Positions 21,914 to 50,808 of a DNA stretch of 64,000 nt are shown one piece after another. A model generated the notes under the pieces. That model did not search any database. It saw nothing but the letters and a program-made list of their open reading frames with translations, and had not been told where the DNA came from. The position numbers were made by a program, and so were the translations under genes. The stretch comes from Dehalococcoidia bacterium (lineage in GTDB: Bacteria > Chloroflexota > Dehalococcoidia > Lucifugimonadales > Australimonadaceae), in NCBI GenBank assembly GCA_034428575.1, contig DAOUHP010000079.1:1163-65162 (forward strand), written 5' to 3'. Within the stretch, counting starts at the first letter, position 1. Each line of letters begins with the position of its first letter.

Positions 21914-21953
21914 GGGACCGCAACCGTTCGTAGATGGACAAGGAGTCGAGGCG

Positions 21954-28741: not shown

Positions 28742-29236
28742 CTACAGGAAGATCGACAAAGCCCTCGGTAGTGTTTTCTGCACGAGCAACACGTCGCGTT
28801 TGACGATCTTCCATCCATCATCAGACATACGAAGCACATCCTCACGCCGGCCGCTCCAGATACTCTCGTAGACATCCCGCCTCACCTGGGTGACGATGAT
28901 GTCGGAGTCGATAATCATGTCGCCGTCGACACCCTCCTCGGGCAGGATATTGGTGACGGCGTGTTGCGTGATGGACGCAGGCGTCTCGACGTGAGCCAGG
29001 CCGGTGTCGAGCTTCTTCACGCGCGCCGCGAGGTCTTCCTTCGTATCACGTATCCAGTCGAAGTGGGGCAGGTCGGAATCATCCTGAACGCCCTGCAAGT
29101 ATTCGGGCGTTCGTACCGTATACAAGAGGTCATCCGAAAACATGTCAAGCCATTCGTGGAAGCGCCCCGCGTCGAGGAGTTTAGCTTCCCGATAGTATTG
29201 CAGGACAATCTCCAGGTAGGTTTGCGGGTCGAGCAT
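28742..29236 (-). CDS. Rieske ring-hydroxylating oxygenase, beta subunit (encoded upstream of its alpha)
   Basis: The last 164 aa of the 611-aa track ORF (MLDPQTYLEIVLQYYREAKLLDAGRFHEWLDMF...) look NTF2-like. The remainder of that ORF is antisense to the binding-protein gene at 29615. Confidence 0.8.
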   Translation of the reverse strand: MLDPQTYLEIVLQYYREAKLLDAGRFHEWLDMFSDDLLYTVRTPEYLQGVQDDSDLPHFDWIRDTKEDLAARVKKLDTGLAHVETPASITQHAVTNILPEEGVDGDMIIDSDIIVTQVRRDVYESIWSGRREDVLRMSDDGWKIVKRDVLLVQKTLPRALSIFL

Positions 29237-32861: not shown

Positions 32862-34070
32862 TTATGGGAGTTCGCAGAGTTCGAGTGGTCGCGTACCCAG
32901 GCGAACGCCGCCATTGGGCGTGACGACCACCGATTCACCGAAGTTCGCCCCGTAGGGCTTTCCGTCCAGCGTCGCACCGGGCTTGACGCACATCACGGCG
33001 CCTTCCAACATCTGGACTCGCATGGCCTCAGGCTTGACGTTGGGCGTGATGAGGGGGCCGTCGTCACCAGTGCCTCGTCCGTGCATGCCGAGGTTGACAA
33101 CCGCCCTGCCGTTGAGGCCCGTGATCCTCGCTGCTTCCATCAATTCACCCGCGGTAACGCCTGGCTTCATACGCTCCAGCACGCGCTCGAACGCTTCGAG
33201 CGTCAACTCCATCGAGTCCATGGTGTCCTGCCCTGCCGGGCCGAATGTGAACGTCTGGTCTATCTGCGCGATGTAGCCGCCCCAGCGGCCGTCAAACTCG
33301 ATCGCCAGGATGTCGCCCGCTTCAAAACTGCGGAAGCTGGGCTGTTCAACGCGGTGGTAGGGATTCCCTGCAGGGCCGCTGATCCAGCCGAACATTGGAG
33401 TGAAGCTGCCGCCTTCCCTGGCACTCGTGTACATCATCTGCGCGAATACGTGGCGCTCCCTGACGCCCGTCCGCGCGTGCTGTTTCACGGTATCGAGTAC
33501 CTTCTCTGCGAGCTGCGTGCCCTTTCGCAGGAATTCGACCTCTTCCTCGCTCTTCACGTACCGCGCTTCGCCCAGAAGGTCAGTCCCGGAGACGATCCCG
33601 GCCGCTGGATACGCCTTACGGACCGTCTCCACGGACTGCCAGTTCGCTTCACCCTCCGCCTCCCTGCAGTGCGCCAGGACGCCCCCTGTCAGCCCTGCGA
33701 TCGCAATCTTCCCACCTGCAAACCCGGCTTCCTTCAAGCGGTCGACGATCGCCTGTCCACCAGTGCCCCGGGACGCTGCCCGTATGTCGGTGAACCAATT
33801 GGAACTTGGCCAAACGCCTCCCCTGGACAGCCAGGCCGTCGGCTCGCCCTCAATGGGGAAATAGACGGTTGTCTCGTCGCTGTTCTCGCCCAACTGCGTG
33901 AGGTAGAGCGCATCAGCCCCGCCCCGGTTGTGGCTGTTGGAGCAGGGCAAACAAACGATGGCGTCAACCCCGTCGCGGTCCATCAATTCTCGGACCCTTG
34001 CCCATCGCCGGTCCCGTTCTGCTGTGGAGAAGACCGCATTGCTCCAGTCAGGGCTCCATGTCTCAATCAT
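32862..34070 (-). CDS. M24 family (creatinase/Xaa-Pro peptidase-like) protein
   Basis: 402 aa. The pita-bread core runs GDILAIEFDGRWGGYIAQIDQTFTF, MHGRGTG, CVKPG, FGESVVV. GGAGG lies 8 nt before the ATG at 34070. Confidence 0.7.
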   Translation of the reverse strand: MIETWSPDWSNAVFSTAERDRRWARVRELMDRDGVDAIVCLPCSNSHNRGGADALYLTQLGENSDETTVYFPIEGEPTAWLSRGGVWPSSNWFTDIRAASRGTGGQAIVDRLKEAGFAGGKIAIAGLTGGVLAHCREAEGEANWQSVETVRKAYPAAGIVSGTDLLGEARYVKSEEEVEFLRKGTQLAEKVLDTVKQHARTGVRERHVFAQMMYTSAREGGSFTPMFGWISGPAGNPYHRVEQPSFRSFEAGDILAIEFDGRWGGYIAQIDQTFTFGPAGQDTMDSMELTLEAFERVLERMKPGVTAGELMEAARITGLNGRAVVNLGMHGRGTGDDGPLITPNVKPEAMRVQMLEGAVMCVKPGATLDGKPYGANFGESVVVTPNGGVRLGTRPLELCELP

Positions 34071-34134
34071 CCGGCTCACCTCCAGGAGAGCATCGACTGG
34101 TTCACTCCCTCCATCAGGAGAGTGAAGAGGCGCG

Positions 34135-35343
34135 TTACACCAACTCGAAGAGCGTCTGCGGACGAGTCCCCAACCGCTCGGCGCCATCCGCACGGACAAC
34201 CACGGAGTCGCCCCAGCGTCCGTAGTCTGACTTGCCGTCTACGGTCGCACTGGGCTTCACAACCATGACGCAGCCTTCCTTCAATTCCACGTCCAGCACA
34301 CGCGGGTCGAAGCGCCCGGCGACCAGGGGGCCGTCGTCACCGGTGCCCCGCCCGTGCAACGTCAGGCGTGCCGCGCCGCGTCCGCCAAGGCCGTCGACTT
34401 CACCGGCCTTCATCAGTTCGCGAACGGTAACGCCTGGCTTCATGGCATCGACGACCCGGTTGAACGATTCATACGTCAGTTCCATGGCGCCGCGAACGTC
34501 GTCGGGCGCCGTTCCGAACGTGAAGAGCTGGTCGATCTGGCTGATGTACCCGCCCCACCGTCCGTCGAACTCCACGACGAGCACGTCACCCTCCGCGAAG
34601 CTGCGAAACGTGGGTTGCTCCACGCGGTGGTACGTATTGCCCAATGGCCCACTGATCCACCCGAACATCGGCTCGTAGCTGCCGCCCAGGTCAGCGAAGG
34701 TGTACAGCATGCGCGCCCACACTTCCCGTTCGGCGACGCCTGGCCGCGCGTGCTCGACGACCGACTGAAGCACCTGCTCCGCCAGCCAGGTGCCCTTGCG
34801 CAGGAATTCGATCTCCTCCTCACTCTTCTGGTACCGCGCTTCCGCGAGCAGGTCGGTAGCCGATGCGACGCGCGCGCTTGGGAATGCGTCCTTGATGATC
34901 TGGACTGACTGCCAGTTGGTCTCGCCTTCCAGGCTGCGGCTGTGGGACAGCACGCCGCCGGTCAGCCCGGCAACGCCGATCGTTCCGCGTTGGAATCCAT
35001 TCTCACGGAGCCAGCCGACGACCGTAGCGCCGCCGGTGCCGCGACCCGCAGCTCGGATATCTGAAAGCCAGTTGGACGATGGCCACACGCCGCCTCGTGA
35101 ATGCCATGCCGTGACGTCACCCTCCAGGGGAAAGACGACCGTCGCCTCATCGCTGTTCTCTCCTAGCTGAGTAAGGTAGCGGGGGTCAGCCTGACCACGA
35201 TCGTGGTTGCTCGTCCAAGGAAGACACACGATGAGGTCGATGCCGTCTCTGGCCATCAAGCTCCGCACCCTGGCCCAGCGCCGGTCGCGCTCGCCCAGTG
35301 AGAATACGGCATTGCTCCAACTCGGTGACCATTCGTCCGCCAT
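34135..35343 (-). CDS. M24 family (creatinase/Xaa-Pro peptidase-like) protein, tandem paralogue
   Basis: 402 aa and collinear with the 32862-34070 product (MADEWSPSWSNAVFS... vs MIETWSPDWSNAVFS...). GGGAGGAAAAG lies directly upstream of the ATG at 35343. Confidence 0.7.
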   Translation of the reverse strand: MADEWSPSWSNAVFSLGERDRRWARVRSLMARDGIDLIVCLPWTSNHDRGQADPRYLTQLGENSDEATVVFPLEGDVTAWHSRGGVWPSSNWLSDIRAAGRGTGGATVVGWLRENGFQRGTIGVAGLTGGVLSHSRSLEGETNWQSVQIIKDAFPSARVASATDLLAEARYQKSEEEIEFLRKGTWLAEQVLQSVVEHARPGVAEREVWARMLYTFADLGGSYEPMFGWISGPLGNTYHRVEQPTFRSFAEGDVLVVEFDGRWGGYISQIDQLFTFGTAPDDVRGAMELTYESFNRVVDAMKPGVTVRELMKAGEVDGLGGRGAARLTLHGRGTGDDGPLVAGRFDPRVLDVELKEGCVMVVKPSATVDGKSDYGRWGDSVVVRADGAERLGTRPQTLFELV

Positions 35344-35381
35344 CTTTTCCTCCCTCGGATACGGTGCACAAAGGGGGCTTG

Positions 35382-36764
35382 CTACTGGCGACCAGCCTTG
35401 CCTGCGGCCAGACGCGTCTCGTAGTCCGGCGGTCGGTGGCCTTTGGCAACAACCGGCACACCCAGTTCGTCCACGCACCAGGGGCGCGTTCCTTCGACCC
35501 AGGACTCGGCCTTGGGCAGCAAGCCCGTGGCCGAGCGGAACCGGTAGGCCGCCGGGTCGTCGACGCAGGACGGCACAACACCACGCTCCTCGAGCGCCAT
35601 CACAGCCTTCAGCAGCCGTTGTCGCACGCGGATATATGGCGCATCATTGGCACCCAGGTGCTCGATAGAACGGTCCAGGATCAGGCCCATGCTCTCTTGT
35701 ATGCCGCGGTCCTGGAGTTCGACTGCCGGAAGCCCAGAATAGCGCCTGGTTAGCTGTGCCTCCTCGCTGAACCCGTAGTCGTTGTTGCGATTACCCTTCT
35801 GATGCCATCGCCCACCGGACTCCGGGTCCGGTTCCACGTATTGCTCCCAACCCCAGTCGAAGATGCTGGTCTGCGAACTCTGCCCGCCACCCAGCGTGCC
35901 CTGACTCGATTCCAACGCGATTGGCCGAACCGGATGCCATTGCGTGGACCACACCAGCGTCGTTCGATCATCCATCGGGATCCAGATATGCCCCGGCACG
36001 ACCTGCATGGTGTCGCCAACGGGGGGGAACAGCGTGAGGAATGGAAAGAAGTAGTGACCGATGCCCCACAGGTAATGGTCCTCATCCCATCCTCGACGGA
36101 CGGCATGCGCAATGCCGTACTCCGTTTCCACGGCCTCGAAATGCGGTGTTTCCCGGAGAAAGCGGTCCAGGTGGTTGCCCATGAGGTACTGCTCGTCCAC
36201 GGTGCTGTGAAGGTAGGCGCCATGACCGAGGTCCAGATCGCCCTCCAAGGCCTGCATCCAGTTGCACTCCCTGACAGTGAGCCTCACAGCTTTGTGGTCA
36301 ACGGGCATCCGCGCCAGGCCATAATCGGGGAACGGCGGGGGCTGCTCACGCGGGCCCATGTATGCCCAGATCGTGCCGTTCACTTCGTGACACGTGTACG
36401 AAGGATGCTTGATCTTGTCCTTGAAATTGCTGCCCACTGGCTCCGCAGGCATCTCCAGACAGCGCCCATCGGGGCTGTACAGCCATCCGTGGTATACGCA
36501 CCGGAGTCCCTCATCCTCGTTCCTTCCGAAGTACAACGACGCGCCCCGATGCGAGCAATACTCAGATAGGAGACCGACCTCACCGGCAGTATTCCTGAAG
36601 ATGACCAGGTCTTCGCCTAGCAGTCGGATGCGCAGAGGCCGAGACCCCGGTCTCTCGACCTCCGTGCTTGGCACCACGGGGAACCAGAACTCGCGAAGCA
36701 GCCTGCCCATGGGCGTTCCAGGCCCCACCCTCGTTAGCAGGTCGTTGTCGGTTGCGCTAAGCAT
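35382..36764 (-). CDS. Rieske non-haem iron oxygenase, phthalate-dioxygenase-like single-subunit family
   Basis: N-terminal LLTRVGPGTPMGRLLREFWFP, Rieske motif CSHRGASL...CVYHGWLY, iron motif ECNWMQALEGDLDLGHGAYLH. GAGGAGG SD. Confidence 0.85.
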   Translation of the reverse strand: MLSATDNDLLTRVGPGTPMGRLLREFWFPVVPSTEVERPGSRPLRIRLLGEDLVIFRNTAGEVGLLSEYCSHRGASLYFGRNEDEGLRCVYHGWLYSPDGRCLEMPAEPVGSNFKDKIKHPSYTCHEVNGTIWAYMGPREQPPPFPDYGLARMPVDHKAVRLTVRECNWMQALEGDLDLGHGAYLHSTVDEQYLMGNHLDRFLRETPHFEAVETEYGIAHAVRRGWDEDHYLWGIGHYFFPFLTLFPPVGDTMQVVPGHIWIPMDDRTTLVWSTQWHPVRPIALESSQGTLGGGQSSQTSIFDWGWEQYVEPDPESGGRWHQKGNRNNDYGFSEEAQLTRRYSGLPAVELQDRGIQESMGLILDRSIEHLGANDAPYIRVRQRLLKAVMALEERGVVPSCVDDPAAYRFRSATGLLPKAESWVEGTRPWCVDELGVPVVAKGHRPPDYETRLAAGKAGRQ

Positions 36765-38073: not shown

Positions 38074-38403
38074 GTGGCGCTCACTGGATGGGTGGCAGTC
38101 GCCAAGGTTGGGGACCTGGCCGACAACGACATGATGATGGTCACGGCGGGCCCGGAGGAGATCCTGCTCGCCCTCGTGGATGGCAACTACTACGCCATCG
38201 ATAACTGGTGCACCCACGCCGGGGGAATGCTCGACCAGGGAGTCCTCCATACGGAGACGCTAGAGGTCGAATGCCCGATCCATGAGGGGTACTTCCATCT
38301 CGTCACTGGCGCGGCCCGCCTCCCGCCCGCCGAAGAAGACACCATCGCGTACGCGGTTAAGGTGGAGGGCGACGATATCCTCATCGGCCCTCAGGGGAGC
38401 TAG
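38074..38403 (+). CDS. Rieske-type [2Fe-2S] ferredoxin (oxygenase electron-transfer component)
   Basis: 109 aa with CTHAGG...CPIHEG (CxH...CxxH) and no catalytic domain. AAGGAG lies 6 nt before the GTG. Confidence 0.85.
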   Translation: MALTGWVAVAKVGDLADNDMMMVTAGPEEILLALVDGNYYAIDNWCTHAGGMLDQGVLHTETLEVECPIHEGYFHLVTGAARLPPAEEDTIAYAVKVEGDDILIGPQGS

Positions 38404-39537: not shown

Positions 39538-39589
39538 CACAACAATTCCGAAGGGCGAGTATGACACCATCACGACACAGGAGGATGGC

Positions 39590-40477
39590 ATGGGAATCTC
39601 AGGGCTGGGCTACATTGGCATCGGCGTCTCCGACATAGCCCATTGGCGCAGCTTCGCGACGACCGGGGTACTCGGCCTGCAGGAGAGCGAAGAGGGCCCT
39701 GACGGGACCGTTTACCTCCGGATGGACGAGCACCACCATCGGCTCGTCCTCACCCCGACCGGTGAGGACGATGTCGTGTTCGTTGGCTGGGAGGTACCCA
39801 CCGACGAGGCCTTGGACGAGATGGCCGAGAATCTCACCAGGCACGGCATCCCGTTCGAGGAGGCCACGCCCGAGGAGTTGGAACACCGGAAGGTGGTCCG
39901 CATGATTAAGCTGAGGGAGTCCGGAGGAGCTCCGATGGAGATCTTCCACGGGCCTCTGGTGCTGTGGGAGCGTCCGTTCCACCCGACGACGCCCATCAGC
40001 GGCTTCAATACTGGCTCGTTGGGCTTGGGTCACATGATCCTCTTCCAGAAGGACCTACAGGAAGCTAAAGATTTCTACCATGAGGTGCTTGGGTTCAAGG
40101 TCAGTGACTATATCTCGGTCCCCGTGCTGGGGGAGGCTATCTTCTTCCACTGCAACCCCCGTCACCACTCGATCGCCATCGTGCAGGCCAATGCCCCCAA
40201 GCACCTGCAGCACATCATGCTCGAGGTCAAGAACCTCGATGACGTCGGACTTGCCTACTATCGTTGCAAGGATTTCGGGACTCCATTGTCCCTGGACATG
40301 GGTCGCCACACGAACGACCACATGTTCTCGTTCTACATGGTCAGCCCTTCCGGGTTTGAGATTGAATACGGCTGGGGCGCCCGGGTGATAGACGACTCCA
40401 CGTGGGTCGTGCAACGGCATGTATCGCCAGCAATCTGGGGTCACAAGCCTGTGCCAAGAGAGGTGCCTGCCACCTAG
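39590..40477 (+). CDS. Type I (VOC-fold) extradiol dioxygenase, BphC/catechol 2,3-dioxygenase-like
   Basis: 295 aa. GLGYIGIGVSD, LGLGHMILF, LQHIMLEV and GRHTNDHMFSFYMVSPSGFEIEYG carry the His/His/Glu pattern in the expected order. AGGAGG lies 5 nt before the ATG. Confidence 0.8.
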   Translation: MGISGLGYIGIGVSDIAHWRSFATTGVLGLQESEEGPDGTVYLRMDEHHHRLVLTPTGEDDVVFVGWEVPTDEALDEMAENLTRHGIPFEEATPEELEHRKVVRMIKLRESGGAPMEIFHGPLVLWERPFHPTTPISGFNTGSLGLGHMILFQKDLQEAKDFYHEVLGFKVSDYISVPVLGEAIFFHCNPRHHSIAIVQANAPKHLQHIMLEVKNLDDVGLAYYRCKDFGTPLSLDMGRHTNDHMFSFYMVSPSGFEIEYGWGARVIDDSTWVVQRHVSPAIWGHKPVPREVPAT

Positions 40478-40617: not shown

Positions 40618-40646
40618 TTGACAGGTTCCTCCTGCGGAAATAGACT
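40618..40646 (+). promoter_or_regulatory. Sigma-70-like promoter for the tandem Rieske oxygenase/ABC operon
   Basis: TTGACA-N17-TAGACT, about 65 nt upstream of the ATG at 40711. The -35 box coincides with the TTG that opens the track ORF, which argues against that start. Confidence 0.5.
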
Positions 40647-40710
40647 CCGCCAAACGTCTGGCAAGCAGGCTTGTGGCGGCGATTATCGTCGCAAACGTTC
40701 GGGTGAGGAG

Positions 40711-42039
40711 ATGTTGACGGCAGAAGAGTTGAAGCTGATGGAGGGGCCCGGCTCGCCCTTGTCCAAAGAGGCGAACGATCTGATATGCCGAACGGGTCCC
40801 GGCACGGCGATGGGTGAGGTGGTCCGCCGGTACTGGGTGCCGGCGTTGCTGTCATGGGAGCTGCCGGAGCCGGACTGCGCGCCTGTGCAAGTGCGGTTGC
40901 TGGGCGAGGACCTCGTGGCGTTCCGGGACACGAAGGGCCGCGTCGGGATCGTGCAGTGGTGGTGTCCGCATCGCGGGACGCCATTGTGGATGGGGCGGAA
41001 TGAGGAGGAAGGGTTACGTTGTCTGTACCACGGATGGAAGTTCGACGTGTCGGGGCAGTGCGTGGACCAGATGAACGAGCCGAAGGGGGCCCAGTACGGA
41101 GACAAAGTGAGGTTGGTGTCGTACCCGACTCTGGAGATGGGCGACATCATCTGGACCTACATGGGGCCGCCGGAGAAGCGTCCTCCGGAGCCGAAGTTCG
41201 AGTTCACGCAGGTGCCGGAGTCCCACCGGCACGTCTCGAAAGTGATCCAGGAGTGCAACTGGGTGCAGGCGCTCGAGGGCGGCATAGACCCGGCGCACGC
41301 CTACGTCCTCCATATGGCGCTGACCGACGACGCCCCGGGCACTGCGGGCCTGAAGCCCAGCAACACCTTCGCAGCCCCTGATCACTACCGGATGTACGTG
41401 GACTATACGGACTACGGTCACCAATTCTGGGCGGTCGGCGCCGCTGACGGCAAGAACTACGTCCACGGCCATCACTTCGTCATGCCATGGACGCAACTCC
41501 GGTTGCACACGTGGATCATGCACATCGTTCCCGGCCATTTCTATGTGCCTATCGACGATGAGCACTGCATGGTGTGGAACTGGGTCTACAGCTTTACGGA
41601 CGAGCCCCTTCCGGAGAGCACACGTGAGTTCGAGGACTGGCGCAGCGGCAATGGCCCCGGCCACGTGGATCAGACCACCTTCAGGTCGATCCCGAACAAG
41701 AGCAACAACTGGGGACTGGACCGCGAGGCCCAACGCACCGTCTCCTTCTCCGGCATCGAGGGCGTCAACGTCCAGGACAGGGCTGTCCAGGAAGGGCCCG
41801 GCCCGATCATCGACCGCAGCCGTGAGAACCTCGGCGCGTCGGACATGCCGGTCATCGGCGTCCGCAAGAGGTTGATGGAGGCCGTGCGCACCGTCGACGA
41901 CAACGGAGATCCCACTGGCACCGGGCCCAGCTACTACGGCCTGCGCGCCATCGGCCGTGTCTATGACCAGCAGTTGGACTGGCGCAAAGCCTCACTGGAG
42001 GAGATGCATCCGGAGACATTCGCTGGCTCCTTGAAGTGA
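40711..42039 (+). CDS. Rieske non-haem iron oxygenase, phthalate-dioxygenase-like family (tandem copy A)
   Basis: LICRTGPGTAMGEVVRRYWVP, CPHRGTPL...CLYHGWKF and ECNWVQALEGGIDPAHAYVLH. Confidence 0.85.
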   Translation: MLTAEELKLMEGPGSPLSKEANDLICRTGPGTAMGEVVRRYWVPALLSWELPEPDCAPVQVRLLGEDLVAFRDTKGRVGIVQWWCPHRGTPLWMGRNEEEGLRCLYHGWKFDVSGQCVDQMNEPKGAQYGDKVRLVSYPTLEMGDIIWTYMGPPEKRPPEPKFEFTQVPESHRHVSKVIQECNWVQALEGGIDPAHAYVLHMALTDDAPGTAGLKPSNTFAAPDHYRMYVDYTDYGHQFWAVGAADGKNYVHGHHFVMPWTQLRLHTWIMHIVPGHFYVPIDDEHCMVWNWVYSFTDEPLPESTREFEDWRSGNGPGHVDQTTFRSIPNKSNNWGLDREAQRTVSFSGIEGVNVQDRAVQEGPGPIIDRSRENLGASDMPVIGVRKRLMEAVRTVDDNGDPTGTGPSYYGLRAIGRVYDQQLDWRKASLEEMHPETFAGSLK

Positions 42040-42693
42040 GGGGGCTGGGCGTTCGCTATCAACGAGACCCGATGCCCGAGCTGATACCGGAGGTTGAGAC
42101 ATGATGTTGACTGCAGAAGAGCTGAAGCTGATGCAAGGGCCTGGCTCGCCTTTGTCAAAGGAGGCGAATGATCTGATCTGCAGAACTGGCCCGGGAACGG
42201 TGATGGGTGAGGTCGTCCGCCGGTACTGGGTGCCGGCGTTGCTGTCGTGGGAATTGCCGGAGCCGGACTGCCCGCCGGTGCAGGTGCGCCTGCTGGGCGA
42301 GGACCTCGTGGCGTTCCGGGACACGAAGGGCCGCGTCGGGATCGTGCAGTGGTGGTGTCCGCATCGCGGGACGCCATTGTGGATGGGGCGGAATGAGGAG
42401 GAAGGGTTACGTTGTCTGTACCATGGGTGGAAGTTCGACGTGTCGGGACAGTGCGTGGACCAGATGAACGAGCCGAAGGGGGCCCAGTACGGAGACAAAG
42501 TGAGGTTGGTGTCGTACCCGACCCTGGAGATGGGCGACATCATCTGGGCATACATGGGGCCGCCGGAGAAGCGTCCACCGGAACCGAAGTTCGAGTTCAC
42601 CCAGGTGCCGGAGTCGCACCGGCAGGTCTCGAAGGTGATTCAGGAGTGCAACTGGGTGCAGGCGGTCGAGGGCGGCATAGACCCGGCACACGC
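40711..42693 (+). repeat. Tandem direct duplication, period 1393 bp (5' ~590 nt of the two Rieske oxygenase genes)
   Basis: 40711-41300 aligns with 42104-42693. Positions 40898-41038 and 42291-42431 are identical over 141 nt. Identical antisense ORF N-termini in the track (MASRDADTTTARSRRGPSCPGTPRGPRPA) also reveal the duplication. Confidence 0.9.
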
Positions 42694-43426
42694 GCGGGCA
42701 TTGCACGGCGCAATCAAGGACGACGAGGACGACGGCTGGGGACTGCCGCCCAGCTCGCCCTTCATGCTCGCTTCTGCCGGCCGGTACTACGTCGAGCACA
42801 CGGACTACGGCCACCGCTTCTGGGAGGTCGCCAGGATGCAGAACGGCGACAACCACGTGATGGCGCACCATTTCGTGATGCCGTGGACACAGATACGGGC
42901 TCACACGGTCAGGGGAAACCTCGTTCCCGGTCACTTCTACGTGCCCATCGACGATGAGAACTGCATGGTGTGGAATTGGGTCTACAGTTTCACGGACGAG
43001 CCATTGTCCGAATGGACGCTCTGGTACGAGGACAACGCCAGCGGGAATGGCCCTGCCCACGTCGACCAGACTACATTCCGATCGTACCCGAACAGGGACA
43101 ACAACTGGGGGCTCGACCGTGAGGCCCAGCGCACCGTCTCTTTCTCCGGAGTGAAGGGCATCAATGTCCAGGACAGGCTGGTCCAGGAAGCGGTGGGCCC
43201 CATCGTGGACCGGAGCCGCGAGAACCTCGGTCAATCGGACCTGCCGATCATCGGAGTCCGCAAGAAGCTGATGGAGGGGGTCGCGCTGGTTTCTGACGAG
43301 GCGGACCCTGCCGGGCTTGGCAGCAGCTATTACGAGTTGCGGGCCTTCGAAAAGGTGTACCCTGCGGATACCGACTGGAAGGCCGAGACACTGAAGATGA
43401 TGCATCCACAGACCATCGGGAGCTGA
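42101..43426 (+). CDS. Rieske non-haem iron oxygenase, phthalate-dioxygenase-like family (tandem copy B)
   Basis: The N-terminal ~195 aa are nearly identical to copy A and the C-terminal catalytic domain has diverged. GGAGG lies 7 nt before the ATG at 42101. Confidence 0.85.
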   Translation: MMLTAEELKLMQGPGSPLSKEANDLICRTGPGTVMGEVVRRYWVPALLSWELPEPDCPPVQVRLLGEDLVAFRDTKGRVGIVQWWCPHRGTPLWMGRNEEEGLRCLYHGWKFDVSGQCVDQMNEPKGAQYGDKVRLVSYPTLEMGDIIWAYMGPPEKRPPEPKFEFTQVPESHRQVSKVIQECNWVQAVEGGIDPAHARALHGAIKDDEDDGWGLPPSSPFMLASAGRYYVEHTDYGHRFWEVARMQNGDNHVMAHHFVMPWTQIRAHTVRGNLVPGHFYVPIDDENCMVWNWVYSFTDEPLSEWTLWYEDNASGNGPAHVDQTTFRSYPNRDNNWGLDREAQRTVSFSGVKGINVQDRLVQEAVGPIVDRSRENLGQSDLPIIGVRKKLMEGVALVSDEADPAGLGSSYYELRAFEKVYPADTDWKAETLKMMHPQTIGS

Positions 43427-43477: not shown

Positions 43478-44644
43478 ATGAGACAGACAGTGAGTCGTTT
43501 AGCAGTGCTACTGGGGACGCTGGTAGCGGTTGCCATGGTGGCCGCCGCCTGTGGCGAGGATCCGACGCCAACGCCGATCCCGACCGCGACGCCTACGCCG
43601 CTATCGGAATACGACGCCACGCTTGCAGCGGCCATGGCGGAAGGTACCGTCAGCATCATCGGACACGAGTCCGAGCTGCGGCGGGCCATCGTGAAGGACG
43701 AATTCGAGAAGCGCTTCCCGGGCATCACCGTCGAGTACCTCGGCCTGCCTGGTGGCGAGGCGGACGCCCGCTGTGAGTCGGAATGGGAAGCGGGTGTCTT
43801 CAACTACGACGTTGTGATGGCACGCTGCGTGAACTTCCTCTTCGAGATTGCCGATGAGGGCGGCCTGCAGCGCATCAGTGACAACATCCTGCTCGAGAAC
43901 CTGCTGGAGGAAGATCTCTGGGTTGGAGGCTTCGAAGAGTCGTTCCTGGACACACAGAACGAATACATCTTCAGCTTCGGCGCCTTCTCGCTCTCGATCA
44001 CGTGGCAGCGGACCGACCTGCTCCCGCAGGACGAGATAACGCAGATCGAGCAGCTCCTCGATCCCAAGTACGCGGGTAGGATCGGCTTCGCAGACCCGAG
44101 AGAGAGCTTCCTGTCCAACTACCAGACCGCGTTCATCTTCGAGAATTCCGGAGAAGCGGGCCTGCGCACTCTGTTCGAGGAGAACGGTTCGCCTATCTAT
44201 GGAACAGGCGACCAGCTCATCGACACGATGGTGCGCACAGACGAACTCTGGATGGCCGTCGGCTTCCCGGACCACCGCCTCAAGTCCTTCCAGGACGCAG
44301 GCCTCGAAGCGGCAAACAACATCGAACCGACCCAGTTCGAGAACGCCTGCTGGATGGGACGGACCAACGGCTTCGTGGCCATACCGACGGACAACCCTCA
44401 CCCGAACGCCACGAAGATCTGGACGAACTGGGTACTGGGTCCGGAAGCGCAAGAGCTCTGGTCGTTCGAGTCCGGGGAGCCCTCGGCGAGGACCGACGTT
44501 CCCGTCGGCACTCCTGGCAGGTGGCCGGACCCCGCGCGTTGTGACTGGAGGAACTTCCAGACCGAGGAGTTCATGGTCAGCGACCGGCTCCTGAACCCCA
44601 CGCGTGACGCAGTGACTCTCATCCTGGACCAACTGGGCAAGTAA
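43478..44644 (+). CDS. ABC transporter substrate-binding lipoprotein
   Basis: MRQTVSRLAVLLGTLVAVAMVAAAC lipoprotein signal followed by a DPTPTPIPTATPTP linker. GGGAGGA SD. Confidence 0.8.
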   Translation: MRQTVSRLAVLLGTLVAVAMVAAACGEDPTPTPIPTATPTPLSEYDATLAAAMAEGTVSIIGHESELRRAIVKDEFEKRFPGITVEYLGLPGGEADARCESEWEAGVFNYDVVMARCVNFLFEIADEGGLQRISDNILLENLLEEDLWVGGFEESFLDTQNEYIFSFGAFSLSITWQRTDLLPQDEITQIEQLLDPKYAGRIGFADPRESFLSNYQTAFIFENSGEAGLRTLFEENGSPIYGTGDQLIDTMVRTDELWMAVGFPDHRLKSFQDAGLEAANNIEPTQFENACWMGRTNGFVAIPTDNPHPNATKIWTNWVLGPEAQELWSFESGEPSARTDVPVGTPGRWPDPARCDWRNFQTEEFMVSDRLLNPTRDAVTLILDQLGK

Positions 44645-44668
44645 GTCCGGCTCGCTTCAGGGAGACAT

Positions 44669-44716
44669 GTCGCCGTCCATAGCTGCGGGCGAAAGCCTGC
44701 AGCTATGGACGGCGAC
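44669..44716 (+). other. Strong intercistronic stem-loop (22-bp stem, GAAA tetraloop) between the binding-protein and ATPase genes
   Basis: gtcgccgtccatagctgcgggc (44669-44690), GAAA loop, then gcctgcagctatggacggcgac (44695-44716). There is one G-U pair and no following T-run. Confidence 0.7.
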
Positions 44717-44733
44717 GACAAAAGGACTACGCC

Positions 44734-45900
44734 TTGGGAACACCGCAGTCTGAGGAGAGAGGCGCTGCGGCGGCAGTGCTCGATTCCACAGCAGAGCCCA
44801 TCCTGCGCATCCGCGGTCTACGGAAACACTTCGGCGCTCAGCGCAGTGTCGCGGCCGTCGATGGGATCGATCTGGATGTCCTGCGCGGTGAGCTCTTTAC
44901 TCTCCTAGGGCCGAGCGGTTGCGGCAAGACGACTACGCTCAGGCTGATCGGAGGGCTGGAGCACCCGGACGAGGGAGAGATAGTGCTGGAAGGCCGGCCT
45001 ATCGTCTCGATCGGAGAGCGTGTCTTCGTACCTTCCCACCGGCGCAACATGGGGATGGTGTTCCAGTCCTACGCGGTGTGGCCGCACCTCAATGTATTCG
45101 AGAACATCGCTTACCCCTTGCGGGCACGCGGCGTTTCCCGTTCCGAGATTCGAGAGCGCGTCGCCCGGGTGATGCACTTGCTCGGGCTTGATGGCCTCGA
45201 ATCGCGGCCCGGTCCGTTACTCAGCGGAGGGCAGCAGCAGCGGGTGGCGCTTGCCCGCGCTCTCGTCTATGAGCCGGGAGTCCTCCTGCTGGATGAGCCG
45301 TTCAGCAACCTCGACGCGAAACTCCGAGAGCAGATGCGCGTGGAGTTGAAGGTTATCCAGCGGGAACTGGGTATAACCGTGGTGCTGGTGACACACGATC
45401 AGATCGAAGCGCTCAGCCTCTCCGATCGGTTGGCGGTGCTCAACGATGGGAAGGTACAACAGGCCGGCACGCCCGCCGAGGTGTACCAGCACCCGTTGAG
45501 CGAGTTCGTCCGCGACTTTATGGGACGGACGCTGACCATGAAGGCGATCGTGGCAGAGGGGAGCCGTCCGGACGCCGCCGCCGTTACGTTGGAAGGCGGC
45601 TCCACCGTCTGGGGGCGCACACAGGGGTCCTGGACGCCAAAGCCTGGCGCAAGCGCGGTCGTGGCGATCCGTCCCGAGCACGTGGGGATCAGCCTTGACA
45701 CTGAGCGTGCGGGATCGGCGAATACGCTGCGCGCAGTGATCGATACGCTGCTGTTCCTCGGTGACCGCTTCGAGTCCCGGGTGCGATGGGGCGACGACCA
45801 ACACCTGATCATGAGCCTCCCCTTGGACGCCGCTTGGGAGGAGGGTGCGCCCGTATTCCTTACGCTTCCTGAGCGGCACGTTTCCGTATGGCCAACGTAG
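44734..45900 (+). CDS. ABC transporter ATP-binding protein (FbpC/PotA-like)
   Basis: Walker A GPSGCGKTT, signature LSGGQQQR, Walker B LLLDEP, and a C-terminal TOBE-like extension. The start (TTG at 44734) is uncertain. Confidence 0.9.
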   Translation: MGTPQSEERGAAAAVLDSTAEPILRIRGLRKHFGAQRSVAAVDGIDLDVLRGELFTLLGPSGCGKTTTLRLIGGLEHPDEGEIVLEGRPIVSIGERVFVPSHRRNMGMVFQSYAVWPHLNVFENIAYPLRARGVSRSEIRERVARVMHLLGLDGLESRPGPLLSGGQQQRVALARALVYEPGVLLLDEPFSNLDAKLREQMRVELKVIQRELGITVVLVTHDQIEALSLSDRLAVLNDGKVQQAGTPAEVYQHPLSEFVRDFMGRTLTMKAIVAEGSRPDAAAVTLEGGSTVWGRTQGSWTPKPGASAVVAIRPEHVGISLDTERAGSANTLRAVIDTLLFLGDRFESRVRWGDDQHLIMSLPLDAAWEEGAPVFLTLPERHVSVWPT

Positions 45901-47615
45901 CAGCGCAATTGCGGCCGTCGGCGTGGCCTATCGAGACGAAGACCATCCTCCAGGTCTTCCTCCTCCTCAGTCTGGCTGCCATCGTCCTGTACCCGATCTT
46001 CCTGCTGCTGCTCAACAGCTTCCAGGACTCCAGGCCAGGGCAGCCGGCCGAGTACACACTGGAGAATTGGCGGTTCGCGTTTACGAACCCCGGGATGCGG
46101 AAAGCGCTCATCAATACGGTCACTCTTCTGGTGACACGGGAAGGGATAGCGCTCCTCGTAGCCATTCCTTCGGCATGGCTCCTGGCCCGTACGGACCTGC
46201 CCTTCAAGGGATGGATCGAGCTGGGCCTGTGGGTGACCTTCTTCCTGCCCACGCTCCCGGTCACAATGGGTTGGATCTTGCTGCTTGACCCCAACTACGG
46301 CGTCATCAACACGACCCTGGAGCGGTTGTCCTTCATCAACAAGTCGCCGTTCGACATCTACTCGTGGTGGGGCATCGTCTGGGTTCACCTTATGACCAGC
46401 TCCATCGCCTTCAAAGTGGTGATGCTGGCGCCCGCCTTTCGGAATATCAACTCTGCCCTGGAAGAGTCGTCCCGCATGGCCGGCGTCAGTCCCATCGGCA
46501 CCTTCCGGAAGATCGTGTTCCCCCTGGCGATGCCCAGCATCATCGTCATCACGATGATTGCCCTCGTCATCTCGTTCCAGGCATTCGAGGTCGAGCAGGT
46601 GCTTGGCTCGCTGCGCAACATAGAAGTGTTCAGCACAAAGATCTTTCAGTTGCTCCGCCGCACCCCTGTCGACTTCGGAGCGGCAACCGCTCTGGCCGCG
46701 ACAGTCATCTTCGCGTTGATCCCTCTCGCGCTATTCCAGTATTGGTACGTCGGCCGGCGCCGCTACGCGACGGTAACCGGGCAGTTCCAGGTCAATCTGT
46801 TCCGCCTCGGACGCTGGCGCTGGATCTTCTTCGGGATGTTTGCGGGTTACCTCGTCCTCTCGCTCATCGTCCCGTCGAGTTTTCTGTTCCTGGGTACCTT
46901 CATGACGCTCTGGGGCTACTTCAGCGGCCTGCCTGACCCCTGGACGCTCGCCAACTGGCAGAAGGTGCTCTCCGACAGCCTGTTCCTCAGCGCCGTCCGA
47001 AGCACCCTGGTCATCGGGTTCGGCTCAGCGCTGTTCGGTATCGTCTGGTTCTCACTCATCGCGTACGTCATTGTGCGCACGAACTTCCGGCTGCGATTCC
47101 TGCTCGACTTCCTGTCGTGGCTCCCGTGGGCCCTTCCCGGCATCATCCTGGGGTTGGGTTTTCTCTGGATGGTGCTTGGCATACCGATCCTTCGTCCGCT
47201 GCACTCCACGACCTTCGTGCTGATCATGATCGTGACCCTGGGCTCGATAACCGTGGGAACGCAGATGTTCAAGGCCAACCTGCTTCAGATCGGCCAGGAC
47301 ATGGAGGAGGCCTCGCGGATCAGCGGCGGCTCCTGGCTCTATACATACAGGCGCGTGCTGCTTCCCATCATGATGCCCACCGTCATCTCGGTGGGTCTCG
47401 TCACTTTCGTGTTTGCAGCGCGGGACGTCAGCCGGGTTGCGCTGCTCGCCAGCAGCGAGAACCGGCCTCTGGCCCTGCTCCAGCTCGACTTCCTGACCAG
47501 CTACAACCTCGAAGCAGCCTCCGTGGTTGGAGTCATCATCATCCTCTTGACGACGGGCGTCGCCGTGGCCGCCCGCCTCATCGGCCTGCAGGTCGGGACC
47601 CAGACCGGAAATTGA
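45888..47615 (+). CDS. ABC transporter permease, fused two-domain type
   Basis: 575 aa. The ATG overlaps the ATPase gene's 3' end by 13 nt. Paralogue of the other three permeases. Confidence 0.85.
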   Translation: MANVAAQLRPSAWPIETKTILQVFLLLSLAAIVLYPIFLLLLNSFQDSRPGQPAEYTLENWRFAFTNPGMRKALINTVTLLVTREGIALLVAIPSAWLLARTDLPFKGWIELGLWVTFFLPTLPVTMGWILLLDPNYGVINTTLERLSFINKSPFDIYSWWGIVWVHLMTSSIAFKVVMLAPAFRNINSALEESSRMAGVSPIGTFRKIVFPLAMPSIIVITMIALVISFQAFEVEQVLGSLRNIEVFSTKIFQLLRRTPVDFGAATALAATVIFALIPLALFQYWYVGRRRYATVTGQFQVNLFRLGRWRWIFFGMFAGYLVLSLIVPSSFLFLGTFMTLWGYFSGLPDPWTLANWQKVLSDSLFLSAVRSTLVIGFGSALFGIVWFSLIAYVIVRTNFRLRFLLDFLSWLPWALPGIILGLGFLWMVLGIPILRPLHSTTFVLIMIVTLGSITVGTQMFKANLLQIGQDMEEASRISGGSWLYTYRRVLLPIMMPTVISVGLVTFVFAARDVSRVALLASSENRPLALLQLDFLTSYNLEAASVVGVIIILLTTGVAVAARLIGLQVGTQTGN

Positions 47616-47754: not shown

Positions 47755-48606
47755 ATGGCGACTCTACAGGAACTGGCGCAGGCGACCGAGGAATCGACCA
47801 GCAAGTATGTCCAGGCAGGTGGGATCCGCCTGCATTACAACGAGGTAGGCACAGGGGACCCTATCCTTTGCCTCCACGGTGGGGGCCCCGGAGCCACGAG
47901 CTGGAGCAACTTCAAGCAGAACCTGCCGGACATCGCGCGAGACCACCGCGTGCTCATGATGGACATGCCCGGCTGGGGCAAGTCCGAGTTTCCTGAGTAC
48001 GACGAGGACTGGTTCGACTTCATCGGCCGCGTCATCGAGGACTTTCTGGACGCTGTTGGTGTCGACCAGGTGGACCTCATCGGCAACTCCATGGGCGGAC
48101 AGGCAGGCCTCGGCTTCGCCCTCAGAAGCCCGCAGCGGCTGAAGCACCTCGTCCTCATCGGCAGCCAGCCGACAGAAGCCGGAATCGTGATCCAGCCGAC
48201 TCCCCAGGAGGCGTTGGCCAACATCGCCGCGTACTACGCCGGGGATGGCCCGAGCATCGAGAAGATGGAGCGACTCGTCCGCAGCCTGATATACGATTTC
48301 TCGCTCGTCACACCGGAGACCATCCGGGAACGATACGAGTCCAGCATCACGCCCGTGAACATGGAGCGAGGCAGGCGCGGGTTCTCGAAGCGCCGCGACC
48401 TCTACAGTGAGCTGTCCAGCATCTCGGTGCCCACGCTGATCATCTGGGGCCAGGAGGACAAGGGCGGCGCGCTGGAAGTCGGTCTGCAGATGTTGAAGAA
48501 GCTGCAGAACGCCCGGCTGTACGTCTTCCAGCGCTGCGGGCACTGGGCGCAGGTCGAGCACCGGGACGAGTTCGACCGCGTCGTCCTGGACTTCTTCGCA
48601 TCCTAG
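47755..48606 (+). CDS. Alpha/beta hydrolase, meta-cleavage-product (C-C bond) hydrolase-like (BphD/MhpC type)
   Basis: LCLHGGGPGA, nucleophile elbow GNSMGG and the C-terminal CGHWAQVE histidine motif. AGGAGGGAG SD. Confidence 0.8.
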   Translation: MATLQELAQATEESTSKYVQAGGIRLHYNEVGTGDPILCLHGGGPGATSWSNFKQNLPDIARDHRVLMMDMPGWGKSEFPEYDEDWFDFIGRVIEDFLDAVGVDQVDLIGNSMGGQAGLGFALRSPQRLKHLVLIGSQPTEAGIVIQPTPQEALANIAAYYAGDGPSIEKMERLVRSLIYDFSLVTPETIRERYESSITPVNMERGRRGFSKRRDLYSELSSISVPTLIIWGQEDKGGALEVGLQMLKKLQNARLYVFQRCGHWAQVEHRDEFDRVVLDFFAS

Positions 48607-50301: not shown

Positions 50302-50808
50302 CTAGATGAGGAATGATAGATTGATGATGGGCATGTGCCGGTTGATGAGCACGACCTTCTTGTGAGCGATGCGCCAGCGGTCCTCCCGGCGTAGCACGTA
50401 GTAGCACTTGGCGGGGAGAGCGCGAAGGTCCCCGAGACCCAGCTGGCGATGGTCGCCCGTGCGGACCTCATGCACAACGAGGTTGCAGCGCACGTTGACC
50501 TCGTTGTCGGCCTCCCCGGGCGTGACCTGCACGTTCGTGATGCTGTGGACGGTTCGCGAGGGCGGCGACTGGGCGAAGTTGCGCTCATGCGCGAGCTGAT
50601 GGACGCGCAACTGGCGCAGTTGACCGTCGTCCCAGAGGATCGACGTCTCCCGCGTGGGGTCTGAGTGCTCCTCGATGGGGATCCAGTAGATGGCGTCCTC
50701 GGTGAAGAGGTCGAGCCAGGGTGGGAATTCGCGTTCGTCGAGCAGCCGGGCTTCTTCGTACAAGAAGTCTTCGGCTTCCTGGCGGGTCATGCTGGCCGTA
50801 GAAACCAC
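50302..50808 (-). CDS. Rieske ring-hydroxylating oxygenase, beta subunit
   Basis: RQEAEDFLYEEARLLDEREFPPWLDLF. Starts directly after the alpha stop codon. The start is GTG at 50808 or ATG at 50790. Confidence 0.85.
   Translation of the reverse strand: MVSTASMTRQEAEDFLYEEARLLDEREFPPWLDLFTEDAIYWIPIEEHSDPTRETSILWDDGQLRQLRVHQLAHERNFAQSPPSRTVHSITNVQVTPGEADNEVNVRCNLVVHEVRTGDHRQLGLGDLRALPAKCYYVLRREDRWRIAHKKVVLINRHMPIINLSFLI

Follow-up and report, generated by a model that had tools for sequence, protein, structure and literature searches.

Two tandem oxygenase genes, A and B, of a Dehalococcoidia bacterium have very probably been shaped by long-running, episodic and domain-restricted gene conversion between ancient paralogues. 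The genes lie in the stretch of 64,000 nucleotides analysed here (the window). In codons 63-195, distances between the two copies of one genome are smaller than those between orthologues of different genomes, also at synonymous and third codon positions, and in the catalytic region the reverse holds true. The sequence-only reading had proposed gene conversion that homogenises the electron-accepting module next to a diverged catalytic part, and this was borne out. Its other suggestions, a recent duplication and a snapshot of neofunctionalisation, are contradicted by the data described below.

Genes A and B and their genomic context

Both genes are predicted to encode alpha subunits of alpha-only Rieske non-haem-iron oxygenases of the phthalate-dioxygenase / LigXa type, which would be homo-oligomeric enzymes (Table 1). 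The Rieske and LigXa_C domains were detected with E values of 2e-16 and 2.4e-36 in A and of 2.2e-16 and 2.1e-32 in B. The Rieske score (PF00355) was 60 bits at a cut-off of 20.3, and that for LigXa_C (PF19301) 126 bits in A and 113 bits in B at a gathering cut-off of 27. The start codon of gene A at 40711 is backed by a stop codon located just 5′ of the same Met in the orthologues of L003 and L005. Relatives of A in the PDB are 9INA, 7FHR, and 7FJL (E 3e-86 to 8e-76), and the similarity to solved homologues is sufficient to define the fold.

Table 1. Coordinates of genes A and B, their segments and neighbouring features in the window.
Feature	Position	Strand	Remarks
Rieske-type ferredoxin	38074..38403	+	Pfam Rieske, Rieske_2; NCBIfam HcaC-like 64-68 bits, under cut-off
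BphC/HsaC-like extradiol dioxygenase, directly upstream	39587..40477	+	TIGR03213 343 bits, just under 366 cut-off
Promoter-like site upstream of A, TTGACA-17-TAGACT	40618..40646	+	Consensus scan only, 10/12 matches, weak
Gene A	40711..42039	+	Predicted Rieske + LigXa_C oxygenase alpha subunit, 442 aa
Homogenised module of A, codons 1-196	40711..41298	+	N-terminal strand, Rieske domain, linker, bridging Asp193, first Fe ligand His196
Most recent conversion tract of the window lineage, ~codons 63-154 of A	40897..41172	+	Partner in B 42290-42565
Exact 133-nt identity tract, A	40898..41030	+	Partner in B 42291-42423; encodes CPHRG...CLYHGW
3′ boundary of concerted evolution, A	41292..41302	+	B 42685-42695; inside D193-P-A-H196 / A-x-x-x-H201
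Diverged, orthologously evolving catalytic module, A	41299..42036	+	B 42692-43423; His201, Asp356, cavity-entrance loops
Conserved island in catalytic domain, codons 271-300	41521..41610	+	B 42917-43006
A-B spacer	42040..42100	+	GGAGG upstream of ATG of B
Gene B	42101..43426	+	Predicted Rieske + LigXa_C oxygenase alpha subunit, 441 aa
Homogenised module of B, same codons as A	42104..42691	+	Offset 1393
ABC transporter (binding protein, ATPase, fused permease), directly downstream	43478..47615	+	

A and B share the Rieske [2Fe-2S] motif C85-P-H87 and C104-L-Y-H107. Their residues D193, H196, and H201 align with D178, H181, and H186 of PDO_KF1, and D356 with the position of D343. This set of four residues (2-His-1-carboxylate plus bridging Asp) is kept in A, B, a third type X present in relatives, and every orthologue. 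The positions of the PDO substrate residues all fall within the diverged module and differ between the types. A and B resemble PDO_KF1 (7FJL/7V25/7V28), RO_CH34 (7FHR), and LigXa-type oxygenases in combining Rieske and LigXa_C domains, in the Rieske ligands, the bridging Asp and the 2-His-1-carboxylate, and in lacking an adjacent beta gene: no Ring_hydroxyl_B (beta-subunit) gene adjoins A or B, and the beta genes of the window flank other alpha genes. They differ from the PDO_KF1 and RO_CH34 chains by many mismatched columns in HMMER alignments, and no NCBIfam equivalog threshold was reached; the equivalogs for named activities (phthalate 4,5-dioxygenase, DDVA O-demethylase LigXa etc.) all scored far under cut-off, the best with 62 bits versus 600. 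Antisense ORFs over the tract (e.g., 40683-41150 and 41992-42600, minus strand) were set aside as high-GC frame artefacts; the plus frames show the coding GC3 signature of the genome (0.83).

The two genes are part of a conserved aromatic-catabolism cluster with the order extradiol dioxygenase, oxygenases, ABC transporter, and with a meta-cleavage-type hydrolase nearby. The extradiol dioxygenase gene is syntenic in all related arrays, and the ABC transporter in those relatives whose examined DNA reaches that far; its ATPase gene was not found in the array DNA of L004, L079, and L080. A and B have a Rieske-type ferredoxin gene nearby, whereas PDO_KF1 is without a ferredoxin component. This ferredoxin gene, the only one of the Rieske type in the window and located beside the array also in L001 and L078, is a candidate for the shared electron donor of A and B. 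In L002-L005, a search of 6 kb around the array did not reveal the ferredoxin gene, and the idea of a shared partner therefore draws solely on L001, L078, and the window.

The window holds nine Rieske oxygenase alpha genes in total, tandem amidohydrolase genes, and tandem M24 peptidase genes. A repeat search of the whole window revealed no pair besides A/B above 65-85% identity, which makes A/B unique within it. A third LigXa-type gene (35382-36764, minus strand) was rejected as a conversion partner, as it has only 34-37% protein identity to A/B and only short conserved motifs in common with them.

Identity profile along the gene pair

Overall, the two genes are 79% identical at the nucleotide and 78% at the protein level in a codon-aware alignment. 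Their offset is 1393 bp, as originally counted, and 1396 bp after a 3-nt indel; the Met codon of gene B in register with that of A is located at 42104. The first segment (40711-40896) has 24 mismatches in 186 nt and thus the 87% identity that had been estimated for it. For the adjoining 141 nt (40898-41038), complete identity had been claimed, and the claim holds for 139 positions; since the copies differ at 41031 and 41034, the longest exact run in the assembled sequence measures 133 nt. From 41039 to 41300 there are 13 mismatches, giving about 95% identity, close to the 96% first proposed. The collapse of similarity described for the region behind the DPAHA motif was confirmed, with 44-60% identity (windows of 45-60 nt) from 41301 and a mosaic pattern beyond.

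The exact run comprises codons 63-107 and thus all four Rieske [2Fe-2S] ligands C85, H87, C104, and H107. When alignment columns were permuted 5000 times, the longest identical run averaged 25 nt and never exceeded 62 nt, so that the observed run lies far outside the expectation by chance. For A versus B, dS (NG86) was 0.69 in codons 1-62, 0.17 in codons 63-195, and 1.04 in codons 196-435. Among degenerate codons with a conserved amino acid, the fraction with a synonymous difference was 0.37, 0.10, and 0.40 for codons 1-62, 63-195, and 196-end, respectively, and the middle segment differed significantly from each flank (Fisher P = 8e-5 and 2e-8). This profile of dS cannot be explained by purifying selection alone. 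The homogenised tract is wider than the Rieske domain: it begins near codon 11 and ends only after the bridging Asp193 and His196, the first iron ligand. As to GC-biased conversion, GC3 was higher in the tract than in codons 196-435 in most, but not all, of 21 copies, usually by a small gap of about 0.02-0.11.

An adaptive explanation for the homogenised tract would be that A, B (and X) form mixed oligomers and that conversion keeps their inter-subunit electron-transfer junction compatible, which involves the Rieske His of one subunit and Asp193/His196 of its neighbour. In PDO_KF1, this junction is made up of the Rieske His, the bridging Asp178, and His181; both of its halves correspond to residues inside the tract, and an A-B interface should be nearly equivalent to an A-A interface, since A and B differ by only six amino acids in codons 1-195. 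Moreover, the genes are adjacent, and a pattern scan detected no terminator-like site in the spacer between them. On the other hand, co-assembly of A and B is putative, PDO_KF1 is an alpha3alpha3 hexamer, and the solved enzymes of the phthalate-dioxygenase / LigXa type are known as homo-oligomers. The same pattern would be expected just as well if the copies used one soluble redox partner, or if conversion were neutral and selection set its limits. We consider mixed oligomers an unlikely reason for the uniform tract.

Different histories of the front and catalytic segments in related arrays

Syntenic arrays with the order A-B or A-X-B were found in eight related Dehalococcoidia assemblies (L001, L078, L002-L005, and L079/L080), which include megabase contigs, complete chromosomes, and short-read MAGs. 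The spacers between the array genes are short and variable (4-64 nt). In neighbour-joining trees based on JC/Kimura distances, codons 63-195 grouped by genome with 94-100% bootstrap support, and with 86-100% when only third positions were used. The tree of codons 196-435 showed types A, B, and X as monophyletic groups, each with 100% bootstrap support. Within codons 63-195, paralogues of the same genome had dN values of 0.01-0.09 and dS values of 0.17-0.59, compared to a dN of 0.06-0.15 (about 0.1) and a dS of 0.7-1.6 for orthologues across genome groups, dS being near saturation in the deep comparisons. Quartets of the window with L002 contained 53 genome-type and no orthology-type sites in codons 63-195, but 11 and 102, respectively, in codons 196-442. 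In six deep genome pairs taken together, about 300 genome-type but 27 orthology-type informative sites fell within codons 11-190.

These data bear on the possibility that no conversion took place and that the Rieske half is merely under stronger purifying selection or codon-usage constraint. The Rieske domain is indeed the most conserved part of the family, and omega was 0.03-0.06 in codons 1-195. However, selection at the protein level does not lower synonymous divergence, which in the tract is smaller between paralogues of the same genome than between orthologues, nor would it cluster third positions by genome. In addition, codons 1-62 are equally constrained at the protein level, yet their dS is four-fold that of codons 63-195. 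Constraint without conversion is therefore very improbable.

States specific to a genome or genome group and common to all its copies were present in five cases: the window with L001 and L078, L002, L003 with L005, L004, and L079. Lineage-specific tracts distinguished the window from L001 and L004 from L079. The close pairs L001/L078 and L003/L005 were orthology-type throughout, which indicates that conversion is episodic. With respect to its direction, the diagnostic sites formed a patchwork of A-type and B-type states with aa, bb, and ba patches, from which no single direction emerges. The first 62 codons of gene A did not fit a simple two-copy conversion history.

A recent tandem duplication, the other origin first proposed for the pair, would imply that the 5′ half is still similar for lack of time, while the catalytic half diverged fast under positive selection. 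The high 5′ identity with its exact run of 133 nt and an omega for A versus B that nears 0.9-1.2 in codons 196-240 would fit such a scenario. It is, however, extremely unlikely: the array is present in all relatives, and positional orthologues of A and B with about 85% amino acid identity occur in conserved synteny in genomes in which the genes next to the array show 64-87% identity. The catalytic modules resemble their orthologues more than one another (88.6-89.9% nucleotide identity to the orthologues of L001 versus 67.5% for A to B) and separate into the monophyletic types described above. Furthermore, the dS of about 1.0 between the catalytic parts of A and B is at least as high as that of the most distant orthologues, and dS already amounts to 0.69 in the first 62 codons.

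False identity caused by collapsed or cross-polished reads of the two copies deserves hardly any credence. The window does come from an uncultured organism, and an exact repeat of 133 nt may be longer than the k-mers used by an assembler. However, eight independent assemblies show the same pattern, with genome-specific substitutions common to all copies, the copies within each genome are still distinct in the tract (dS 0.17-0.59), and array order and flanks agree with the relatives.

The boundary of conversion and the catalytic module

In 9 of 10 A/B comparisons outside the clade formed by the window, L001, and L078, the best two-part breakpoint was located at codons 187-198, and in six of these ten at codons 194-198. 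For the window versus L004, it was placed at 173/174. Fisher P values for the breakpoints ranged from 7e-15 to 3e-34. Hence, in almost every deep A/B comparison conversion ends between the two histidine iron ligands (DPAH/AxxxH).

Beyond this boundary, dN for A versus B was 0.32, whereas orthologues of the catalytic module had dN values of 0.02-0.10 and omega values of 0.04-0.10. The orthologous catalytic domains are thus under strong purifying selection. The loops of the module were placed by homology to LIII, LI, and LII of the solved homologue RO_CH34, and the most diverged stretches map to its cavity-entrance loops LIII and LI. The notion of neofunctionalisation in progress is not borne out, as the catalytic types are old and conserved (orthologue omega 0.07-0.10) and represent a stable long-term state rather than a transition. 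Within the catalytic domain, the island of codons 271-300 had about equal numbers of genome-type and orthology-type sites (15:13), whereas the flanking bins were strongly orthology-type, and nucleotide identity of A and B in codons 277-291 was 0.89-0.96 across six genomes. The island is a possible micro-conversion patch.

Most recent conversion in the lineage of the window

Quartets of the window with L001 and L078 had a breakpoint at codons 147-174, and on its left side 11-12 genome-type sites stood against 0-1 of the orthology type. Within codons 63-195, A and B of the window are 96.0% identical at the nucleotide level, compared to 91.5% for A of the window and A of L001 and 90.5-91.5% for the window and L001 orthologues, showing that the conversion was lineage-specific. 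With the synonymous divergence seen elsewhere in the tract, the 133-nt run would be free of synonymous differences with a probability of about 0.001, which points to a nested, more recent event. Since the lineage of the window separated from its closest relative in the sample, it has undergone two or more nested conversions, and the last of them left the 133 identical nucleotides. As to strain-level variants of the window, in which conversion might be in progress, the best match in the protein database was 92%, and a metagenome scan gave two close contigs, both too short for the array.

Discussion

The preferred explanation is that gene conversion, i.e., homology-dependent, non-reciprocal recombination, repeatedly overwrites one tandem copy with the other. 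Overwriting has taken place separately in every lineage, patch by patch and in either direction, so that roughly codons 11-196 evolve in concert, while the catalytic modules A, B, and X located downstream are old orthologous lineages, each under strong purifying selection. Conversions entering the substrate-binding module would presumably be purged by selection, as they would erase the specialised pocket. The sequence cliff past the boundary (44-60% identity) might by now also block heteroduplex extension, and together with purging selection it would make the boundary self-reinforcing. The fixed position of the boundary may accordingly reflect selection or a homology barrier. A uniform front module could be tolerated or favoured if it has the same task in all copies, namely to receive electrons from one redox partner and to transfer them over the subunit interface. 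The uniformity may be due to such a shared partner, or it may have arisen neutrally as a by-product of homology together with selection.

The two-gene array of the window was most likely derived from a three-gene array A-X-B by loss of X. Long identical tracts make such an array prone to unequal crossover, and the middle gene may have disappeared from this lineage in that way.

The closest parallel to A/B is provided by the mammalian tandem paralogues TLR1/TLR6, in which conversion is likewise region-restricted and recurrent. One region is closer between these paralogues than between orthologues (Kruithof et al., 2007; PMC2077338). Independent conversions with nearly the same boundaries occurred in every species examined, the ligand-recognition part remained orthologous, and the authors explained the pattern by co-evolution with shared partners (PMC2077338). 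In contrast to these eukaryotic receptors, A and B encode a bacterial metalloenzyme, the boundary lies inside a metal-binding motif, and a third copy, X, joins in some genomes.

The release-factor genes RF1 and RF2 are not usually known to lie side by side. In bacteria including Chloroflexi, two independent cases of conversion of domain 3 of RF1/RF2 are described (Ishikawa et al., 2015; PMC4530459). RF1/RF2 resemble A/B in being anciently diverged bacterial paralogues with conversion confined to a domain of common function, distinct specificity domains, and both directions of conversion (PMC4530459). For A and B, in contrast to these two cases, adjacency is accompanied by repeated conversion in each of the deep lineages sampled. 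In assembly-line polyketide synthases, gene conversion between domains (GRINS) is widespread and linked to diversification (PMC8256042). GRINS are similar to A/B in that conversion acts within bacterial catabolic or biosynthetic enzyme genes, but involve repeated modules in giant multidomain genes and dedicated repeat elements (PMC8256042). In the literature searched, no description of gene conversion in Rieske oxygenase paralogues was found.

A bolder interpretation, to which we give a low probability, regards the array as an enzyme system with a constant and a variable region. One electron-transfer module, comprising the Rieske cluster, the bridging Asp and the first Fe ligand, would be actively kept uniform by conversion, because A, B, and (where present) X co-assemble into mixed alpha oligomers or must match a single redox partner, and DPAH/A would be the natural junction for exchanging catalytic modules of Rieske oxygenases. 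If this were true, one particle or one electron-supply chain would serve several substrate pockets.

With domain-restricted conversion between old paralogues, the reading favoured here, A/B provide an example of concerted evolution limited to one domain that comes from a family of bacterial catabolic enzymes, extends over several genomes and is unusually clear-cut. Since the parts of these genes have different histories, whole-gene trees and identity thresholds misplace such proteins. In nature, a single Rieske/electron-transfer module has repeatedly been combined with three different catalytic modules, and the junction used, between the two histidine iron ligands, offers a hypothesis for the design of chimeric Rieske oxygenases. 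In Dehalococcoidia/SAR202-type genomes, expansions of oxygenase paralogues are not simply a matter of "duplicate and diverge".

Sequence identity and synonymous divergence of genes A and B

The start of gene A, the first of the two tandem Rieske oxygenase alpha-subunit genes, was assigned to the ATG at 40711, because a stop codon lies immediately 5' of the same Met in the orthologues of the related loci L003 and L005. As noted in the sequence-only reading, A and B are offset by 1393 bp, or by 1396 bp past a single 3-nt indel. In a protein-guided codon alignment, the genes showed 79% nucleotide and 78% protein identity, distributed very unevenly along their length. Identity was 87% across 40711-40896, complete at 40898-41030/42291-42423, about 95% from there to about 41300, and 44-60% straight after the D-P-A-H-A codons, beyond which conserved stretches alternate with diverged ones. 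This agrees with the profile initially counted by hand (about 87%, about 96%, then collapse and mosaic after DPAHA), except that the identical tract, given there as 141 nt, comprises 133 nt, with mismatches at 41031 and 41034. After permutation of the alignment columns, the longest identical run averaged 25 nt and reached at most 62 nt; the identity pattern is real and not a product of chance.

A per-domain dN/dS comparison, which the earlier reading had proposed, gave Nei-Gojobori estimates of dS 0.69 and omega 0.03 for codons 1-62, dS 0.17 and omega 0.06 for codons 63-195, and dS 1.04 and dN 0.32 for codons 196-435. The share of amino-acid-conserved degenerate codons with a synonymous difference was 0.37 in codons 1-62, 0.10 in codons 63-195, and 0.40 from codon 196 to the end (Fisher P 8e-5 and 2e-8 for the central segment versus each flank). 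Purifying selection alone does not account for these values: protein-level constraint is the same in codons 1-62 and 63-195 (three amino-acid changes each), yet their synonymous divergence differs four-fold. With the divergence of the remaining tract as the expectation, zero synonymous changes in the 133-nt core have a probability of about 0.001, which indicates at least two nested conversion events.

Gene products and genomic context

The A and B proteins match the Pfam families Rieske (PF00355) and LigXa_C (PF19301), both well over gathering scores, but approach no NCBIfam equivalog. The closest solved structures are 9INA, 7FHR (RO_CH34), and 7FJL (phthalate dioxygenase PDO_KF1), with E values of 3e-86 to 8e-76. 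By HMMER alignment to the PDO_KF1 numbering of PMC8649396, the Rieske ligands of A are C85, H87, C104, and H107, D193 is the Asp that bridges between subunits, and H196, H201, and D356 are the iron ligands. No beta-subunit gene adjoins A or B. Judged from the neighboring genes, which include a short-chain dehydrogenase, the two enzymes likely hydroxylate or O-demethylate imported aromatics that feed a meta-cleavage route.

The region 9152-52091 is a dense aromatic-catabolism island. Besides nine Rieske alpha-subunit and three beta-subunit genes, it encodes one dioxygenase of the BphC type and two of the LigB type. Long ABC permeases of 574-610 aa, each with two BPD_transp_1 stretches, occur at four positions, so that the transporter type adjoining A and B recurs across the island. 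Other paralogues also occur side by side. Two tandem Amidohydro_2 genes overlap by 4 nt at start and stop, and another copy lies 5 kb upstream; the genes share 69-80% nucleotide identity over short stretches and no near-identical tract. Two adjacent Peptidase_M24 genes with overlapping ORFs show about 71% identity across an 80-nt stretch. A single 618-aa ORF fuses homocysteine S-methyltransferase and methylenetetrahydrofolate reductase domains.

Coordinates of genes in the window and of gene X
Feature	Position	Strand	Remark
Gene A	40711-42039	plus	ORF, Rieske alpha subunit
Gene B	42101-43426	plus	ORF, Rieske alpha subunit (42104-43426 from Met in register with A)
Rieske alpha subunit	9152-10501	minus	
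Rieske alpha subunit	16568-17878		
Rieske alpha subunit	18414-19703		
Rieske alpha subunit	21819-23219		
Rieske alpha subunit	27307-28875	minus	
Rieske alpha subunit	35382-36764	minus	
Rieske alpha subunit	50811-52091	minus	
Beta subunit	17845-18366		
Beta subunit	23251-23730		
Beta subunit	50302-50808	minus	
Rieske-type ferredoxin	38074-38403		neighbor of A/B
BphC/HsaC-like extradiol dioxygenase	39587-40477		neighbor of A/B
Short-chain dehydrogenase (SDR)			neighbor of A/B
ABC transporter	43478-47615		neighbor of A/B
HsaD/BphD-like hydrolase	47755-48606		neighbor of A/B
Long ABC permease	3942-5675	minus	
Long ABC permease	24016-25740		
Long ABC permease	30963-32795		
Long ABC permease	45888-47615		
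Amidohydro_2	14085-15197		third copy
Amidohydro_2	19767-20840		tandem
Amidohydro_2	20837-21913		tandem
Peptidase_M24	32862-34199	minus	
Peptidase_M24	34135-35478	minus	
Fused ORF	53451-55307	minus	
Gene X	about 7335-8708		locus coordinates; between A and B in L002-L005, L079, L080

Concerted evolution in related arrays

The comparison of copy number, also proposed earlier, drew on other Dehalococcoidia assemblies, several of them megabase contigs or complete chromosomes, in which the locus was recovered by scanning a genome collection and by two contig look-ups. A-B arrays as in the window were found at L001 and L078 (92-95% protein identity), A-X-B arrays with a third paralogue X at L002-L005 and L079/L080, and partial arrays at L006 and L016. 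The conserved gene order runs from a CDF transporter through the extradiol dioxygenase and the oxygenase array to the solute-binding protein, the ATPase, and the permease; the ATPase was not found beside the arrays of L004, L079, or L080.

In the protein alignment, residues 100-140 contain genome-specific residues common to all copies of one genome; past residue 197, there is one sequence type for all A, another for all B, and a third for all X. Bootstrapped neighbor-joining trees of codons 63-195 grouped the copies by genome (100% for window plus L001, 100% for L002, 100% for L004, and 94% for L003 plus L005; 86-100% with third positions only) with 0% support for orthologue groups, and those of codons 196-435 recovered types A, B, and X at 100% and genome groups at 0%. 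The type grouping persisted after addition of outgroups. In the tract, dS was 0.17-0.59 for within-genome paralogues versus 0.7-1.6 for orthologues across genome groups, and in the catalytic region dN was 0.30-0.41 for paralogues versus 0.02-0.10 for orthologues (orthologue omega 0.04-0.10). Quartets of the window and L002 contained 53 genome-type sites (copies alike within a genome) and no orthology-type sites (copies alike by gene type) in codons 63-195, versus 11 and 102 in codons 196-442. Trees, dS, and quartets thus bear out the earlier proposal of gene conversion homogenizing the electron-accepting module. The companion proposals did not hold: the 100% grouping of each catalytic type across genomes speaks against recent duplication, and the low catalytic omega against ongoing neofunctionalization.

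Of the ten A/B comparisons outside the window/L001/L078 clade, nine placed the best two-part breakpoint at codons 187-198, six of them at codons 194-198 (41292-41302; B 42685-42695); window versus L004 gave an earlier one (173/174). P values ranged from 7e-15 to 3e-34. In ten-codon bins of informative sites pooled over six deep genome pairs, genome-type sites prevailed in codons 11-190 (about 300 versus 27) and orthology-type sites from codon 201 onward. A conserved island within the catalytic domain, codons 271-300 (41521-41610/42917-43006; PGHFYVPIDDExCMVWNWVYSFTDEPL), had a ratio of 15:13, unlike its flanks, and may be a short secondary micro-conversion patch. An assembly artefact is a very unlikely source of the A/B identity, since eight independent assemblies, produced with different methods, would all have to contain it, each with genome-specific substitutions common to otherwise distinct copies. 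The comparisons show that exchange between the tandem copies has been recurrent, homology-dependent, and non-reciprocal, that it is confined to the 5' part (about codons 11-196), and that its 3' limit is nearly constant.

Gene X takes part in this concerted evolution, with earlier breakpoints for X pairs (codons 154-176). Catalytic-domain trees place the window/L001 clade beside L002, nested within the X-bearing genomes, so that the two-gene array is most simply explained by secondary loss. They suggest loss of X in the window/L001/L078 lineage, perhaps through unequal crossover within the homogenized tract.

The close pairs L001/L078 and L003/L005 are orthology-type along the whole length, indicating no conversion since those splits. 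Lineage-specific tracts are present in L004/L079 and in window/L001, pairs whose catalytic regions are about 89% identical. In codons 63-195, the window copies are 96.0% identical to each other, and their identity to the respective L001 orthologues is 90.5-91.5%. The most recent tract specific to the window ends around codons 147-174. At sites diagnostic for A versus B in L001/L078, the window shows interleaved aa, bb, and ba patches, indicating patchy conversion in both directions. Codons 1-62 of A (40711-40896) are an outlier, with 85.5-87.1% identity to all five other clade copies. The 5' end of B is nearest to A of L001 and L078 (93% and 91%; own orthologues 87% and 83%), and nine quartet sites versus L078 show a "swapped" pattern. 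A possible history is A-to-B conversion and then replacement of the 5' end of A from an unsampled donor. In most of the 21 array copies, GC3 is higher in codons 63-195 (40897-41295, 42290-42688) than in codons 196-435 (e.g., L002, 0.93 versus 0.82-0.85); it is equal or lower in A of L004, A, X, and B of L079, and B of L001, L078, L003, and L005. The higher values may reflect GC-biased conversion.

Discussion

The 3' limit of exchange could be set by selection: tracts running into the catalytic module would overwrite a specialized substrate pocket and be eliminated. By residue mapping, the greatest A/B/X divergence (A residues about 201-214 and 264-272) corresponds to the cavity-entrance loops LIII and LI of RO_CH34, and all but one of the PDO substrate-binding residues lie downstream of the conversion boundary. 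Repeated resetting upstream and continued divergence downstream would produce the identity cliff, and the 44-60% identity just beyond it might also block heteroduplex extension. All copies have one electron path (Rieske cluster, bridging Asp, first iron ligand), and the homogenized module contains it entirely. Co-evolution of the module with a redox partner used by all copies would account for its uniformity; the window has nine oxygenase alpha genes, a single Rieske ferredoxin gene, and no recognizable reductase. The uniformity would fit equally well with a need for compatibility in mixed oligomers, or with simple tolerance of conversion in a part whose function does not differ between copies.

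Full-text literature searching found no report of gene conversion among Rieske oxygenase paralogues. The closest described parallel is the mammalian tandem pair TLR1/TLR6, in which the same region was converted independently in every species and the ligand-binding part evolves orthologously (PMC2077338). Bacterial parallels are described for the RF1/RF2 genes, where conversion affects domain 3, whose function the two factors share (PMC4530459), and for internal gene conversion in polyketide synthase genes (PMC8256042). Domain-restricted conversion is an already known process, and the A/B case is unsurprising in principle, if unusually clean. It matters for phylogenetic work on the oxygenase expansions of uncultured Dehalococcoidia, and its boundary may serve enzyme engineers as a natural junction for recombination.
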